DNA of 4,142 bases from a virus (Duplodnaviria; Heunggongvirae; Uroviricota; Caudoviricetes): IMG/VR virus record IMGVR_UViG_2711768040_000003. The stretch is one strand, 5' to 3'. This document shows positions 1 to 4,142 of this stretch, piece by piece. Positions within the stretch are counted from its first letter, which is position 1; each line of letters starts with the position of its first letter. Both the position numbers and the translations under genes were made by a program. The notes under the pieces are model-generated. The model saw nothing but the letters and a program-made list of their open reading frames with translations, was not told the DNA's origin and searched no databases.

Positions 1-292
1 CTGAGCTATGACTGCGCATTCGGGCCACCAGCAGAGGTGGCATTGCTTTTTCGATAGCTGGTAACAACGCCTGAATTTTTTTAACCGCATCAGGGGTGTC
101 TTTCTCCACCCAGCGGAAAATTTTCTGAGTATTGCGAGCCAGGGCTTCCGGATGGCTGTCGTCATACAGTTCCGGGAACGTCATTCCCAGCTCGAAATAC
201 GCTTTGGTAATTTTCGCAGCCGGTACTTTTTCGCCGTCCGGATGCGCCCAGGCATTCATCGCCATGCGGATGTGTTCATGCTTGATTTTCAT
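1..292 (-). CDS. ydaT: YdaT-like prophage protein (CII-position gene), N-terminal ~97 codons only; the C-terminus runs off the left edge
   Basis: Reverse-complement of 241-292 reads ATG AAA ATC AAG CAT GAA CAC = MKIKHEH..., which I recall as the YdaT N-terminus. No stop before position 1, so it is absent from the ORF track. It lies directly downstream of the YdaS-like gene on the same strand, as in Rac. Family assignment is from recall, not a search. Confidence 0.6.
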   Translation of the reverse strand, partial: MKIKHEHIRMAMNAWAHPDGEKVPAAKITKAYFELGMTFPELYDDSHPEALARNTQKIFRWVEKDTPDAVKKIQALLPAIEKAMPPLLVARMRSHSS

Positions 293-557
293 GAATCAAG
301 CTCCTAGAAAGTGGTTTTGTTAACGTTTTGGTATCTTCCAGCTCGGGCCAAATATTCATCCAATCAAAAGGCCTTAGTTGCTGACGTGTAACTTCACCAT
401 TACTGGCTCGCTCAATAAGGACACATAACGATGCCCCTAACACTTGACCTTTACTCAACGCCTTTCTTAGATAACCGATGCTGGTACCACACTCGCATGC
501 AAACATACGCTGTTCATCTGACGAAAGAGAATTGAGAAATATTCTTAATTCTTCCAT
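276..557 (-). CDS. ydaS: YdaS-like Cro/CI-type HTH regulator (Cro position of the switch)
   Basis: 93-aa ORF in the track. Motif ...GTSIGYLRKAL...IERASNGEVTRQQLRPFDWMNIWPEL matches my recollection of the YdaS/Cro-like family pattern. Strong SD: reverse-complement of 558-570 is CTAAGGAGTAGCT immediately before the ATG (minus strand, 557-555). Divergent from the repressor gene. Confidence 0.7.
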   Translation of the reverse strand: MEELRIFLNSLSSDEQRMFACECGTSIGYLRKALSKGQVLGASLCVLIERASNGEVTRQQLRPFDWMNIWPELEDTKTLTKPLSRSLIHENQA

Positions 558-582: not shown

Positions 583-664
583 AGAATACCTACAGGTAAA
601 CAAAAGTCAATACCCACAGGTTGTTTACCTTGCAGTAATCGCATCTATTATTTACCTATGGACA
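583..664. promoter_or_regulatory. OR-like divergent operator/promoter region: three 12-bp sites TACCTACAGGTA (587-598), TACCCACAGGTT (611-622), TACCTATGGACA (653-664)
   Basis: Seen directly: repeated imperfect palindromes with consensus TACCyAyrGGTA, centres 24 bp apart for the first two. Candidate leftward promoter on the minus strand, TTGACT (complement of 605-610), 16-bp spacer, TATTCT (complement of 583-588), overlapping the sites. Candidate rightward -10 TATTAT (646-651) lies 6 nt before the repressor ATG. Confidence 0.55.
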
Positions 665-1077
665 AATATGAATTTAGACGACAGCAACTCATCAAAATTC
701 GTGATGAGAAATGCGATGGTAAAGCGGTTAACGTGGCCAGAAAGATCGGGCGCGAGCCTTCTTATGTATCAAGAATGTTGTACCCAGAGGGGAAAAAGGG
801 AAAAAAACGGATCGCTGATGATATGGTGGAGATTATCGAAGAGTCCTTTGGGTTACCCCGGGGATGGATGGATGGTATCGTTTCATCATCAACGAACACA
901 GCCTCCAGTTATGAAACAAGGGTTCTAACGCCACGACAACGTATTTTTTTAGATCTCTTAGACGAACTGCCAGAAAGTGAAGCGGATAACTTATTAAAAA
1001 CTCTTGAAGAGAAAAAACAGTATTACAATATGATCTACGAAGAAATCCGTAAAAAGAAAGCACAAAACGCATCATAG
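658..1077 (+). CDS. Prophage immunity repressor, XRE-family HTH, DicA/RacR-like
   Basis: 139-aa ORF. N-terminal HTH-like segment AVNVARKIGREPSYVSRML. C-terminal LTPRQRIFLDLLDELPESEADNLLKTLEEK resembles my recollection of the DicA C-terminus (...LELLELFNALPESEQDTQL...). Divergent from the Cro-like gene and flanked on both sides by the same operator motif. No SD upstream of the ATG. Confidence 0.75.
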   Translation: MDKYEFRRQQLIKIRDEKCDGKAVNVARKIGREPSYVSRMLYPEGKKGKKRIADDMVEIIEESFGLPRGWMDGIVSSSTNTASSYETRVLTPRQRIFLDLLDELPESEADNLLKTLEEKKQYYNMIYEEIRKKKAQNAS

Positions 1078-1119: not shown

Positions 1120-1160
1120 TACCCATGGGTATTTACTTTTTAAATACCTATGGGTATCCT
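1120..1160. promoter_or_regulatory. OL-like operator pair TACCCATGGGTA (1120-1131, perfect palindrome) and TACCTATGGGTA (1145-1156), with a candidate early-left promoter
   Basis: Same TACCyAyrGGTA consensus as the sites at 587-664, centres 25 bp apart. Candidate -35 TTTACT (1132-1137), 17-bp spacer, -10 TATCCT (1155-1160) on the plus strand, oriented toward ydfA. Confidence 0.5.
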
Positions 1161-1342: not shown

Positions 1343-1498
1343 ATGGATACTATCGATCTTGGCAACAACGAATCTCTGGTGTACGGCGTGTTTCCCAACC
1401 AGGACGGCACATTCACCGCGATGACGTATACCAAAAGCAAAATGTTTAAAACCGAAAATGGTGCCCGTCGCTGGCTGGAAAGAAACTCAGGTGAGTGA
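1343..1498 (+). CDS. ydfA: YdfA/YdaF-like small prophage protein (DUF1391 family), 51 aa
   Basis: MDTIDLGNNESLVYGVFPNQDGTFTAMTYTKSK...ARRWLERNSGE is near-identical to my recollection of Qin YdfA. GAGG at 1334-1337 sits 5 nt upstream of the ATG. The longer track ORF from 1262 is an in-frame upstream extension with no good RBS. Confidence 0.8.
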   Translation: MDTIDLGNNESLVYGVFPNQDGTFTAMTYTKSKMFKTENGARRWLERNSGE

Positions 1499-1499
1499 T

Positions 1500-1628
1500 A
1501 TGGATTTCGACACAATCATGAAAAAGGCTTACGAAGAATACTTCGAAGGCCTTGCCGAAGGCGAAGAAGCTCTCAGCTTCAGTGAGTTTAAACAGGCGCT
1601 TTCCAGCTCGGCAAAATCTAACGGCTGA
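1500..1628 (+). CDS. ydfB: YdfB-like small protein, 42 aa (below the ORF-track length cutoff)
   Basis: My translation: MDFDTIMKKAYEEYFEGLAEGEEALSFSEFKQALSSSAKSNG. The ATG at 1500 follows the ydfA stop (TGA 1496-1498) with a 1-nt gap, the tight ydfA-ydfB arrangement I recall from Qin. Confidence 0.65.
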   Translation: MDFDTIMKKAYEEYFEGLAEGEEALSFSEFKQALSSSAKSNG

Positions 1629-1657: not shown

Positions 1658-1876
1658 ATGCAGAAACGAGAACCCGTCATCATCGCGCCAGACTATACCG
1701 ATGATGAACTTTATGAGTGGATGCGCCAGAAAATTAATGCAGCGCAGGATCTGAAATGGGCCAATGAAGCCAGGGCTAAGCAGGCTGAAAATCTGTCCGC
1801 TCTGGAGCAGGATATCACCAGGCTGGAAAAAGCAGCGGCATTAAGCATTGCCAGAATGATTACATACCCGCGTTAA
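1658..1876 (+). CDS. ydfC: YdfC-like prophage protein, 72 aa
   Basis: 72-aa ORF in the track, MQKREPVIIAPDYTDDELYEWMRQKINAAQDLKWANEARAK...; length and position match Qin ydfC. GAGGAA at 1646-1651 sits about 7 nt upstream of the ATG. Confidence 0.75.
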   Translation: MQKREPVIIAPDYTDDELYEWMRQKINAAQDLKWANEARAKQAENLSALEQDITRLEKAAALSIARMITYPR

Positions 1877-1898
1877 TAGCTAACCAACGAGGCTAATA

Positions 1899-2219
1899 AT
1901 GGAATTTAAAGATTTACCAATGCAATTCCAGGAAATGGCAGCGAATATAGTTCGTTCCCAACTGGCGACTCTTGACCTGAGTACCGTAGAAAAAGAAACC
2001 ATCGATACTATATCCGGTAACGTGCGTCGTGCCTTTATCGGTCTGTACGAAGAGAAGCAGCTCTCTGATAACCAGGATTTACATGAAAAATACCTCCTGG
2101 ATCTAATGGATATCATTGATAAGGGGTTTGGCTTGTTAATGAAAAAGAAAGGGATTCGAATAGAACTCCTTGAAAATTACTTTGCAACAAAAAGCATTAA
2201 TTCTTTTGATTCAAAATAA
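1899..2219 (+). CDS. Hypothetical acidic protein, 106 aa, no recognised family; first gene of the AT-rich inserted segment
   Basis: 106-aa ORF in the track with a good SD (GAGG at 1889-1892, 6 nt before the ATG). Co-directional with the operon, starting 23 nt after the ydfC stop. AT-rich relative to flanking DNA. I recognise no motif. Confidence 0.6.
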   Translation: MEFKDLPMQFQEMAANIVRSQLATLDLSTVEKETIDTISGNVRRAFIGLYEEKQLSDNQDLHEKYLLDLMDIIDKGFGLLMKKKGIRIELLENYFATKSINSFDSK

Positions 2220-2472
2220 GAGAATTAATTACAGACTTAACATGCTCTTTCTCATGATTGAAGCTCTCATGATTGAAAGTGCCGGGTTGAAGCGAGTCGA
2301 TATAATCAACAAGACTCTGTCGTACGACTTCATTTTTATCCATAACAGATGCAAGAAATGAAATTGCTAAAAGAGTTATATCACTACGCGCCGCAGCATG
2401 CTGCAATGCTTTATCAAAATTATTAATCTGGCGTATCAGGGAGTTAATGATTTCATCATTTTCAGTCGACAT
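2197..2472 (-). CDS. Hypothetical 91-aa protein, convergent with and overlapping the 3' end of the 106-aa ORF by 23 bp
   Basis: ATG-initiated portion of the 202-aa minus-strand track ORF: MSTENDEIINSLIRQINNFDKALQHAAARSDITLLAISFLASVMDKNEVVRQSLVDYIDSLQPGTFNHESFNHEKEHVKSVINSLILNQKN. Plausible helical composition and an AAGGG SD-like sequence upstream. The track's extension to 2805 starts at TTG and is arginine-rich across the GC-rich region, so I trimmed it. Confidence 0.4.
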   Translation of the reverse strand: MSTENDEIINSLIRQINNFDKALQHAAARSDITLLAISFLASVMDKNEVVRQSLVDYIDSLQPGTFNHESFNHEKEHVKSVINSLILNQKN

Positions 2473-2806
2473 TTCACCCTTCTGAGGGTTGGTGATTAAG
2501 GAGTTCTCCACGGGTGAGGTGGAGTGCGTGCGCCGGACACGGGTGAGCATCCGGCACTGACAGTTTACTGAAAGGATATTTCCCTGAAAAGTCAGACCAT
2601 AACGCGAAAGCGCACGGCGAGGTAGCTGGTTCATAGATAGCCTGTCGTTAAATTTTCGTCGACCGTGCACTTCCGGTTGTGGCAACCCGCGAAATGGCGC
2701 GGCGGTAAGTATGGCGGGGTTATTCCTTCCCCGTTGAGGACACCGGGTTGTCAGGTTGACCATACGCTTAAGTGACAACCCCGCTGCAACGCCATCTGTT
2801 ATCAAT

Positions 2807-2864
2807 TTTCTGGTGACTTTTGGCGGTATCAGTTTTACTCCGTGACTGCTCTGCCGCCCTTTTT
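2807..2864 (+). ncRNA. dicF: DicF small regulatory RNA (cell-division inhibitor sRNA), including its 3' stem-loop and U-tract
   Basis: tttctggtgacttttggcggtatcagttttactccgtgactgctctgccgccc followed by ttttt matches my recollection of E. coli DicF (UUUCUGGUGACGUUUGGCGGUAUCAGUUUUACUCCGUGACUGCUCUGCCGCCC) with about one mismatch. It sits between ydfC and dicB as in Qin. Confidence 0.85.
2822..2864 (+). terminator. Intrinsic-terminator-like 3' end of DicF (GC-rich stem GGCGG...CCGCC followed by TTTTT)
   Basis: GGCGG (2822-2826) and CCGCC (2854-2858) flank an internally structured loop, followed by the T-run 2860-2864. DicF 3' ends are known to arise partly by termination. Confidence 0.5.
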
Positions 2865-2868
2865 AAAG

Positions 2869-3030
2869 TGAATTTTGTGATGCGGTGAATGCGGCTGAGC
2901 GCACGCGGAACAGTTAAAAAGGCCAGTTGACTTCCGTATTGGTTCTTATGGGTGGGTTCTCTGTATCCGGCGTTAATTGTTAACTGGTTAACGTCACCTG
3001 GAGGCACCAGGCACCGCATCACAAAATTCA
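2869..3030 (+). repeat. Perfect 19-bp inverted repeat (TGAATTTTGTGATGCGGTG at 2869-2887; CACCGCATCACAAAATTCA at 3012-3030) enclosing 124 bp between DicF and dicB
   Basis: Exact reverse-complement arms read from the sequence. In RNA this gives a 19-bp duplex starting 5 nt after the DicF U-tract and ending 17 nt before the dicB ATG. Confidence 0.7.
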
Positions 3031-3047
3031 TTGTTGAGGACGCGATA

Positions 3048-3236
3048 ATGGAAACGTTATTACCAAACGTTAATACGTCTGAAGGTTGCTTTGAAATTGG
3101 TGTCAAAATCAGTAACCCTGTATTTACTGAAGATGCCATTAACAAAAGAAAACACGAACGGGAGTTATTAAATAAAGTATGCATTGTTTCAATGCTGGCC
3201 CGTTTACGTCTGATGCAAAAAGGATACTGGCAATGA
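3048..3236 (+). CDS. dicB: DicB cell-division inhibitor, 62 aa
   Basis: METLLPNVNTSEGCFEIGVKISNPVFTEDAINKRKHERELLNKVCIVSMLARLRLMQKGYWQ is near-identical to my recollection of K-12 DicB. In frame with track ORF 2952..3236. Confidence 0.9.
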   Translation: METLLPNVNTSEGCFEIGVKISNPVFTEDAINKRKHERELLNKVCIVSMLARLRLMQKGYWQ

Positions 3237-3436
3237 ATACATCATTTGCACTCGTTCTGACGGTTTTTCTTAATACGGGCGAGCCGCTTGACCTTATTGT
3301 TGACATACGTGATTCAATGGAAGAATGCATGGCTGCCGCAGCGGAACAGAAAATTCCCGGCAACTGTTATCCGGTTGATAAAGTTATTCACATGGACAAT
3401 AACGAAATCCCGGCGGGACTTAAAACAGCACCGTAA
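3233..3436 (+). CDS. ydfD: YdfD-like prophage lysis protein, 67 aa, with an N-terminal hydrophobic segment
   Basis: MNTSFALVLTVFLNTGEPLDLIVDIRDSMEECMAAAAEQKIPGNCYPVDKVIH...; start overlaps the dicB stop (ATGA, 3233-3236) as in Qin dicB-ydfD. In frame with track ORF 3179..3436. Confidence 0.8.
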   Translation: MNTSFALVLTVFLNTGEPLDLIVDIRDSMEECMAAAAEQKIPGNCYPVDKVIHMDNNEIPAGLKTAP

Positions 3437-3516
3437 TTAATATCCGGTTTCATTTTTATATGCCAGCAATGGCAGGGATTTGTTCACCCTTAAATCTGTA
3501 ATGAGGTTAAAACAAA

Positions 3517-4142
3517 ATGAGTAAAGTCTTTATTTGCGCCGCCATTCCGGACGAACAGGCAATAAAGGAAGAAGGTGCAGTTGCTGTAGCCACTGCCATC
3601 GAAGCCGGTGACGAACGCCGCGCCCGTGCCAAATTTACCTGGCAATTCCTGGAGCAATATCCGGCTGCTCAGGACTGCGCTTATAAATTTCTTGTCTGCG
3701 AGGATAAACCCGGTATACCCCGCCCTGCCCTCGATTCCTGGGATGCTGAATATATGCAGGAAAACCGCTGGGATGAGGCGTCTGCTTCCTTTGTCCCGGT
3801 CGAGACTGAATCCGATCCGATGAACGTCACTTTTGACAACCTAGCCCCTGAAGTACAGAACGCTGTCATGGTTAAGTTCGACACATGTGAAAACATCACC
3901 GTTGATATGGTTATTAGCGCACAGGAATTGTTGCAGGAAGACATGGCAACATTCGACGGACATATCGTTGAAGCGTTGATGAAAATGCCAGAAGTTAACG
4001 CCATGTATCCGGAGCTTAAGTTGCACGCCATTGGGTGGGTTAAGCATAAATGTATTCCTGGTGCTAAATGGCCCGAAATTCAGGCAGAGATGCGCATCTG
4101 GAAAAAACGTCGCGAAGGTGAACGCAAGGAAACCGGAAAATA
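3517..4142 (+). CDS. Prophage early-left-operon protein, partial (no stop within window); possibly YdfE-like
   Basis: Open frame from ATG 3517 (MSKVFICAAIPDEQAIKEEGAVAVATAIEAGDERRARAKF...) to the window end, about 208 codons. GAGG at 3503-3506 upstream. Missing from the track because it has no stop. Position after ydfD matches Qin ydfE, but I cannot confirm the family from memory. Confidence 0.65.
   Translation, partial: MSKVFICAAIPDEQAIKEEGAVAVATAIEAGDERRARAKFTWQFLEQYPAAQDCAYKFLVCEDKPGIPRPALDSWDAEYMQENRWDEASASFVPVETESDPMNVTFDNLAPEVQNAVMVKFDTCENITVDMVISAQELLQEDMATFDGHIVEALMKMPEVNAMYPELKLHAIGWVKHKCIPGAKWPEIQAEMRIWKKRREGERKETGK

Follow-up and report, generated by a model that had tools for sequence, protein, structure and literature searches.

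Does a small RNA that survives intact inside a rearranged prophage keep its whole set of targets when one of its bases changes? The question is raised by a stretch of 4,142 nucleotides of a virus record (IMG/VR IMGVR_UViG_2711768040_000003), which was analysed at its full length and is called the window below. DicF was among the first bacterial small RNAs to be described, and the initial annotation of the window had recognised in it an intact, near-canonical copy with about one difference from the K-12 sequence, near position 2818. It has been published that E. coli carries dicF in many different prophage settings, and in multiple copies (PMC7873438, PMC9438474), so a further intact copy adds little, and the feature itself is already known and ordinary. 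What appears modestly new is a prediction at the level of alleles, concerning the control of xylR by the variant that the window carries.

The identity of the RNA is established by its match to the DicF covariance model (Rfam RF00039), which covers positions 2808-2859 of the plus strand and model positions 1-52 of 52 with 75.8 bits (E 4.1e-16), relative to a gathering score of 48 bits. All consensus pairs of the model are standard in the window copy, with no non-canonical pairs. The K-12 reference was the DicF of the K-12 derivative JW5503, which lies in the Qin region (locus L001, 3168-3220), and the alignment of window positions 2807-2859 to this sequence has a sole mismatch, at nucleotide 12, where the G of K-12 is replaced by T at 2818. 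Hence the approximate count in the initial annotation becomes exactly one, and its description of the copy as intact is borne out by both the model score and the exact alignment (52 of 53 nucleotides): a single base is substituted instead of several, and the change leaves the terminator hairpin as it is in K-12. The interval 2807-2864 consists of the 53-nt RNA followed by its T5 tail (2860-2864), and the RNA qualifies as DicF by its model score, its architecture, its place in the operon and its complementarity to ftsZ. These comparisons demonstrate the position of the change and, with near certainty, the identity and intactness of the RNA. Judged by its sequence, such an intact DicF in a mosaic prophage is presumably functional.

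A difference of only one base could reflect a sequencing or assembly error in a canonical DicF. However, the identical 73 nt occur in 55 independent complete E. coli records, and DicF with T at position 12 (T12) is also present in 4 IMG/VR contigs, making such an error vanishingly improbable. The frequencies of the alleles at this position were estimated from exact matches of 73-75-nt queries, that for T12 being window positions 2800-2872 (73 nt). G12 was matched exactly in 3044 complete E. coli records, A12 in 121 and T12 in 55, with the canonical DicF class as a whole being present in about 3,960-3,980 such records. The T12 records mostly have a single canonical copy, T12 being the sole form in strains such as AVS0536 and CFSAN061761, and several represent clonal AVS isolates. 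A second sample, of 126 copies retrieved by a degenerate DicF pattern from GTDB genomes and IMG/VR, contained G at position 12 in 108 cases, A in 14 and T in 4, and no other internal position of DicF is as polymorphic; the further recurrent variants in these copies were found only at nucleotides 1, 10, 38, 39 and 53. The 4 IMG/VR contigs with the 53-nt T12 form differ in their prophage backgrounds, and the allele occurs in at least three architectures: in one, DicF lies directly 5' of dicB; in another, a Rha-family gene is inserted ahead of dicB; and in a third, a relBE pair lies upstream. T12 is a genuine allele, carried by a minority of copies.

The window is an early-left-type region of a lambdoid prophage (Table 1), in which the operon genes and DicF all lie on the plus strand in the order ydfA-ydfB-ydfC-(590-bp insertion)-DicF-dicB-ydfD, with a 320-nt leader 5' of DicF and a structured 190-nt spacer between DicF and dicB. 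Comparison with K-12 by blastn limits homology to 1305-1896 (97.3%) and 2487-4142 (92.3%), the latter resuming at position 2848 of L001, and no nucleotide homology to K-12 Qin was found in 1-1304. The protein encoded by the repressor-like gene is related to DicA only in its C-terminal 46 amino acids (33% identity), and the Cro-like protein has no resemblance to DicC when the two are compared. The divergence from canonical Qin described by the initial annotation was therefore confirmed on each point, with the altered repressor, a Cro side that is YdaS/YdaT-like instead of Qin-like, and an inserted cassette (1897-2486) all being recovered. Neither of the two open reading frames in the insertion had a Pfam or PADLOC match, and strain E275a is annotated with the same insertion arrangement. 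The best full-length match to the window among complete E. coli genomes was 95.9% identical, and none of the phage records covered more than 65% of it.

Table 1. Positions of the features of the window, with the basis of each assignment.
Feature	Position	Strand	Basis
YdaT-family gene, N-terminal part	1-292	-	
YdaS/Cro-like gene	276-557	-	
Repressor-like gene, 139 aa, presumed to regulate the operon promoter	658-1077	+	phrog_5736 transcriptional regulator, E 4e-70
Two palindromic operator-like sites, TACCCATGGGTA and TACCTATGGGTA	1120-1156		5' of ydfA
ydfA	1343-1498	+	DUF1391; RefSeq annotation of homologous loci
ydfB	1500-1628	+	RefSeq annotation of homologous loci
ydfC	1658-1876	+	RefSeq annotation of homologous loci
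Insertion of 590 bp absent from K-12, after ydfC and before the DicF leader	1897-2486		blastn breakpoints
Insertion ORF 1, function unassigned	1899-2219	+	phrog_6937 match only
Insertion ORF 2, function unassigned	2200-2472	-	
DicF leader, untranslated operon RNA 5' of the RNase E processing site	2487-2806	+	K-12 homology
DicF sRNA, 53-nt form, U12 allele	2807-2859	+	Rfam RF00039; 52/53 identical to K-12
5' single-stranded seed, DicF nt 5-17, predicted to pair with xylR +8..+20; contains U12	2811-2823	+	duplex prediction, compensatory pair
Single difference from K-12, DicF nt 12 G to T (U in RNA)	2818	+	pairwise comparison
DicF intrinsic terminator hairpin, nt 16-52	2822-2858	+	minimum-free-energy fold, Rfam consensus structure
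Loop and 3' half, nt 25-53, pairing with ftsZ RBS, pykA RBS and manX coding region	2831-2859	+	identical to K-12
T5 run after the hairpin (terminator tail)	2860-2864	+	sequence; identical in K-12
Long-range duplex, 5' arm, probable RNase III site	2867-2887	+	inverted repeat, folds, haplotypes
Long-range duplex, 3' arm, just 5' of the dicB ribosome-binding site	3012-3032	+	inverted repeat, folds, haplotypes
dicB, 62 aa cell-division inhibitor	3048-3236	+	Pfam PF05358 DicB, E 7e-39, full length
ydfD-like DUF1482 gene	3233-3436	+	Pfam PF07358, E 5.9e-21
Exonuclease gene start	3517 onward		

Control of this operon would fall to the resident repressor. The pattern TACCYAYRGGTW has 6 strand-matches in the window, at four sites (587, 611, 1120 and 1145), when 0.01 would be expected by chance. 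Two of these operator-like sites, 587-598 and 611-622, lie in the divergent repressor/cro promoter region, and the other two just 5' of ydfA. In K-12, DicA controls both dicC/dicA and the dicB operon. As the layout of the operators in the window mirrors this arrangement, we infer that the resident repressor silences the operon, and thus DicF. Rightward transcription would start from a promoter 5' of ydfA, and be blocked by the repressor acting through the four TACC-N4-GGTA operators.

The determinants needed to release DicF from such a transcript appear to be in place, and its expression and processing would follow those of K-12, from which, together with the conserved anatomy of the locus, this account of biogenesis is drawn. 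Both alleles have the same minimum-free-energy fold, with 15 unpaired 5' nucleotides before the hairpin of nt 16-52 (-15.9 kcal/mol), as in the consensus structure of Rfam. A C (2859) and then TTTTT (2860-2864) come after the hairpin, and we take the T5 run to be a likely Hfq-binding 3' U-tail of the kind found in Hfq-dependent sRNAs. U12 also extends the run of U residues before the terminator from 3 to 4, which presumably might slightly favour the binding of Hfq or RNase E. The DicF hairpin was missed by a simple terminator scan, whose rules (a contiguous stem and a loop of 3-8 nt) bar a bulged hairpin with a 9-nt loop. The 12 nt directly 5' of DicF are those of K-12, the sole change nearby being C to A at 2794. 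The 53-nt form of DicF has been described as the product of Rho-independent termination and 5' processing by RNase E, and a 72-nt form as the product of RNase III cutting the full-length operon RNA (PMC9438474). In the window, the shorter RNA would be terminated by its own hairpin and U-tail and cut by RNase E within an unchanged UCAA|UUUC context.

The longer form may be explained by a perfect 19-nt inverted repeat, 2869-2887 and 3012-3030, which flanks the spacer and is extensible to 21 bp. Within 2790-3060 this duplex is present in both the minimum-free-energy and the centroid fold, and the region is more stable than its shuffled versions (z = -4.7, with 0 of 200 shuffles as good). The duplex is kept in 104 distinct haplotypes, across which the changes are mostly wobble-compatible, frequently converting C-G to U-G or G-C to G-U. 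The duplex of 2867-2887 with 3012-3032 is the probable RNase III site for 72-nt DicF, whose 3' end would lie at about 2878, in the 5' arm, following cleavage within the 21 bp.

Does selection maintain this RNA? The initial annotation read strong conservation within a mosaic context as evidence that it does, and this conclusion is supported, though on other grounds. The flanks at 2640-2806 and 2860-2920 are about 98% identical between the window and K-12, the same as DicF itself (52 of 53), so this pairwise comparison alone is silent on selection. As loci anchored by pattern are biased towards conserved DicF, conservation was reanalysed in a set of 80 loci for which DicB served as the anchor. 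In haplotypes of the canonical class, nucleotide diversity was 0.027-0.11 in the leader and spacer on either side and 0.008-0.012 in DicF, as would be expected if purifying selection acted on the RNA; it is this population-level diversity, rather than the similarity of the window to K-12, that favours the original reading.

Across all DicB-linked loci, by contrast with the canonical class, conservation in the 400 nt 5' of dicB is lowest in the DicF slot, with a mean majority frequency of 0.72 versus 0.96 in the spacer, because several discrete alternative alleles occupy the slot. These alleles, altA-altD (e.g. L156, L146, L137 and L150), share with DicF its position between conserved flanks 5' of dicB and a GGCGG...CCGCC-type terminator stem, followed by an invariant TTTTTAAAGTGAATTTTGTGATGCGG, whereas their 5' tails and loops are unlike those of the canonical class to which the window belongs. 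They fold at -16 to -21 kcal/mol, and the Rfam DicF model either scores them below its gathering threshold (45.4 and 34.1 bits) or does not match them. No above-chance complementarity of these alleles to ftsZ, pykA or manX was detected when whole-molecule duplexes were compared with shuffled sequences, although this measure is so crude that even canonical DicF scores no better than z = -1.7 with ftsZ, and the alleles may have targets.

The pairing of the window's DicF with its known targets was predicted using K-12 target sequences (loci L004-L006) rather than those of the window's host, with duplex energies computed without Hfq or target accessibility. The energies for ftsZ (-27.8 kcal/mol), pykA (-26.9 kcal/mol) and manX (-34.5 kcal/mol) are equal in both alleles. 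As the initial annotation placed it, the difference is in the 5' half of the RNA, outside the half (nt 25-53) that pairs with these three mRNAs, which in the case of K-12 ftsZ involves positions -29..+1. This assignment agrees with the position of the mutations DicF9 (nt 32-34) and DicF23 (G36C), which map within nt 25-53 according to Table S4 of PMC5069750, and with the pairing of manX to the 3' end of DicF (Azam and Vanderpool). As nt 25-53 are those of K-12, the RNA should still repress ftsZ, pykA and manX. Repression of ftsZ, causing filamentation, and of pykA would act at the ribosome-binding sites, and that of manX through the recruitment of Hfq.

Hence, among the leaders for which the initial annotation proposed that pairing be checked, those of ftsZ and pykA should be unaffected, and the consequence of the change is probably confined to xylR. 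The possibility it raised, that the difference touches a pairing region, is realised at the central pair of the DicF-xylR duplex. This duplex is predicted to be a contiguous 13-bp helix of DicF nt 5-17 with xylR +8..+20. In the published genetic analysis (Balasubramanian et al. 2016, PMC5069750), the 5' end of DicF pairs with xylR and the 3' part with ftsZ and pykA, and regulation of wild-type xylR is relieved by DicF11 (G7C) and rescued by xylRcomp11 (C+18G). The positions of these mutations were deduced from the mutagenic oligonucleotides of Table S4, in which DicF3 alters nt 6-8 (GGU to CCA), DicF11 is G7C and xylRcomp11 is C+18G. As the predicted pair G7:C+18 is the published compensatory pair, the register of the helix is anchored experimentally, and in this register G12 pairs with C+13 at the helix centre.

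G12U would therefore convert the central G:C of the 13-bp duplex into a U-C mismatch. Either U12 or A12 opposite C+13 creates a 1x1 mismatch, and weakens the predicted xylR duplex from -20.3 to -14.5 kcal/mol. The predicted xylR duplex of DicF11, which lost xylR control, is -15.7 kcal/mol; since that of U12 is weaker still, U12 should be at least as defective for xylR. Compensation on the side of the target is unlikely: an Arg codon begins with C+13, and of 5409 E. coli genomes 5374 share an identical (100%) xylR segment from -40 to +51, AVS0536 among them, a strain in which the sole canonical copy of DicF is T12. The prediction is hence that U12 is a naturally occurring separation-of-function allele in which xylR repression is mostly or wholly lost, with the caveat that a 7 + 5 bp duplex with one 1x1 mismatch might still regulate when DicF is abundant. 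That G12U selectively removes the repression of xylR is, on these modelled energies, a little better than an even bet. Taken jointly, the best explanation of the locus is a functional DicF in a dicBF-type operon in which G12U would remove most or all xylR repression, and we consider this probable. Like the window, A12 alleles lack the full 13-bp seed complementarity to xylR found in K-12. The complete seed match is a property of the K-12 allele, and is not defining for the DicF family.

The 5' region may do more than control xylR. In PMC5069750, repression of pykA is lost in DicF3 as well, together with most of the ftsZ-independent toxicity, so the 5' region of DicF has further partners; this behaviour of DicF3 cannot be assumed for U12. 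Direct pairing of the 5' seed with pykA was considered as the cause of the DicF3 defect and rejected, as the predicted energies of -12 to -14 kcal/mol are too weak and the sites are inconsistent, differing between alleles.

How else might the change be read? It could be neutral, with U12 DicF regulating all of the K-12 targets, including xylR, because 12 of 13 pairs and Hfq are enough. The tolerance of G, A and U at position 12 among natural copies resembles that of a weakly constrained site, as does the lower-case (variable) consensus base in Rfam, and the leftover xylR duplex still has a predicted energy of -14.5 kcal/mol. Yet the single G7C change, which in PMC5069750 sufficed to relieve xylR regulation until a compensatory change rescued it, affects the same helix and leaves a stronger predicted duplex than U12, and the central mismatch divides that helix into 7 and 5 bp; we therefore regard neutrality as rather unlikely. 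A different proposal is that U12 retargets the seed, gaining or strengthening pairing with some other mRNA or altering toxicity, such that the G, A and U alleles have different regulons. The requirement of nt 6-8 for pykA repression and ftsZ-independent toxicity, described in PMC5069750, would fit with this, as would a most polymorphic internal site in an otherwise nearly invariant RNA, and the distribution of T12 over several prophage architectures. However, no candidate for a U12-specific target is at hand, and with T12 limited to 55 records, which include several clonal AVS isolates, drift fits equally as well as selection, which leaves retargeting improbable.

A further reading denies the importance of base pairing in trans altogether, and regards the element as mainly cis-acting: a terminator or attenuator, with a processing site, that limits read-through into toxic dicB, any activity in trans being incidental. 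The occupation of the slot in DicB-anchored loci by unrelated hairpin-plus-U-tail sequences that fold as terminators is what this would predict, since the terminator is the common denominator of the slot, and the alternatives have no above-chance complementarity to ftsZ, pykA or manX in the crude test. Under such a role, however, the canonical sequence should drift as the slot does between classes. Instead, its loop and 5' tail are nearly invariant, and these are the parts experimentally shown to pair with targets. As many sequences can terminate transcription in this slot, termination alone fails to explain the near-invariance of the canonical class, which is best explained by a trans-pairing role; a mainly cis-acting element is accordingly given little credence.

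Combining the allelic and the slot-level variation suggests a broader, more tentative interpretation, which we hold at somewhat short of even: position 12 may be a natural specificity switch, at which G12 confers xylR repression and A12 and U12 dispense with it, within a slot for exchangeable terminator-sRNA cassettes. The A12 and U12 alleles would then possibly have shed part of the 5'-dependent, ftsZ-independent toxicity, and kept the control of ftsZ, pykA and manX. Were the switch real, prophages would carry DicF alleles with different regulons, and were the slot truly one for cassettes, canonical DicF would be one of several terminator-sRNA alleles within it. No report of the G/A/U polymorphism at nt 12, or of its place on the central pair with xylR, was found in the literature consulted, nor any of other hairpin alleles that take the place of DicF in its slot; the work of Faubladier and Bouché in 1994 reportedly concerns dicF-like prophage sequences, and may already cover the latter. 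If the prediction for xylR is true, then wild strains already carry separation-of-function alleles like those engineered in the laboratory, and these natural alleles would be useful for establishing which DicF targets face selection, and which cause toxicity.

Comparison with known systems places the window's DicF closest to that of K-12 Qin, with which it has in common 52 of 53 nt, the hairpin, the U-tail, the 5' processing context, and a position on the operon strand between ydfC and dicB. The two loci differ in immunity, as the window has a YdaS/YdaT-like side and a repressor that is DicA-related only at its C-terminus, and at the junction of ydfC with the leader, which in K-12 is without the window's 590-bp, two-ORF insertion. 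Several lambdoid backgrounds similarly carry dicF with dicB in EHEC O157:H7 (CP-933 / Sp prophages), in which the DicF target pchA is specific to the pathotype, according to reviews (PMC7873438 and PMC9438474, on Melson and Kendall 2019).

Outside the DicF family, the structured dicB leader at 2857-3080, including its long outer stem, has a sub-threshold match to STnc100 (RF02076). Membership of that family was rejected, as the score is 36.3 bits relative to a gathering score of 47 (E 1.8e-5), with homologous loci scoring 32-36 bits, and the match concerns the region 3' of DicF rather than DicF.

The closest counterparts of U12 itself are other 5'-seed variants. The A12 allele (e.g. L023 and L071) is altered at the same position, with the same predicted loss of G12:C+13 (-14.5 kcal/mol), and is otherwise canonical. 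The change here is a transition (G to A), that in U12 a transversion. A12 occurs about twice as often, and in some copies is accompanied by A1 or A38. The laboratory changes DicF11 (G7C) and DicF3 (nt 6-8) likewise alter the 5' seed, and in PMC5069750 they leave ftsZ repression intact and lose that of xylR. Hence U12 affects the same helix as these mutations, with a predicted duplex that is equally weak or weaker, but whereas they were engineered and tested, U12 is an allele that occurs in nature.

Among the loci anchored on DicB, conservation of the region upstream of dicB was lowest at the DicF slot, the position occupied by this small RNA in the window. At least four discrete alternative alleles, each comprising a hairpin and a U-tail, were found in this slot with conserved flanks on either side, and the downstream sequence TTTTTAAAGTGAATTTTGTGATGCGG was near-invariant across these loci. 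The Rfam DicF model either scored these alternatives below its threshold or did not match them, and their complementarity to known DicF targets (ftsZ, pykA and manX) did not exceed chance in a crude comparison of duplexes with shuffled sequences. The allele at locus L150 is the DicF 5' seed fused to another hairpin.

The adjacency of DicF and dicB is also not universal. Two E. coli strains carrying T12, the DicF allele with T at nucleotide 12, have a Rha-family regulator gene inserted after DicF. Ahead of this regulator gene lies a short piece of dicB that carries a pseudogene annotation; the gene beyond the insertion is an intact dicB in one strain (L214), and a YdaE-family gene in the other (L215). 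Metagenome-assembled genomes under the labels Veillonella parvula and Collinsella sp. additionally contain exact matches to the DicF pattern; the most likely explanation is mis-binning of prophage contigs from Escherichia, not that these taxa are true hosts.

Coordinates of features in the window and in the compared loci
Feature	Location	Remark
Operator-like sites (four)	window 587-598, 611-622, 1120-1131, 1145-1156	match TACCYAYRGGTW
Repressor-like protein	window 658-1077	
590-bp insertion relative to K-12	window 1897-2486	exactly at ydfC/DicF-leader junction
DicF slot	window 2800-2859; about 1760-1815 in L137, L146, L150, L156, L207	
Long-range duplex arms (21 bp)	window 2867-2887 and 3012-3032	
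Hypervariable/indel zone	window 2921-2950	within dicB leader, conserved elsewhere
Region with the inserted Rha-family gene	L214 4130-5297; L215 4130-5094	after DicF, T12-bearing E. coli
Exact DicF pattern matches	L010 5069-5099; L012 77-107	metagenome-assembled genomes

Downstream of DicF, the 124 nt spacer extending to the dicB ribosome-binding site is enclosed by the long-range duplex, which was kept across 104 haplotypes, with mostly wobble-compatible changes, and is probably the RNase III site that gives the 72-nt DicF. This region also matched the Rfam STnc100 model, at a sub-threshold 36 bits (threshold 47). Nucleotide diversity reached 0.27-0.43 in the leader's variable zone, of which the window and PEC422 have in common a version 13 nt longer than that of K-12.

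Upstream, the insertion encodes two ORFs overlapping tail-to-tail, of 106 aa (+) and 91 aa (-), neither of which matched Pfam or PADLOC. As PEC422, CFSAN061761 and AR_0069 harbour other small cassettes at the same junction, it looks like a hotspot for moron insertion.

The four operator-like sites, where 0.01 were expected by chance, are divided between the divergent cro/repressor promoter region and the region upstream of ydfA, with two in each. Their presence in both regions suggests, from sequence, that this dicBF-type operon is controlled by the resident, non-DicA repressor. The repressor-like protein resembles DicA only across its C-terminal 46 residues (33% identity), whereas its N-terminal part, presumably DNA-binding, is unrelated; this makes it a domain-level mosaic, in keeping with the different operators.
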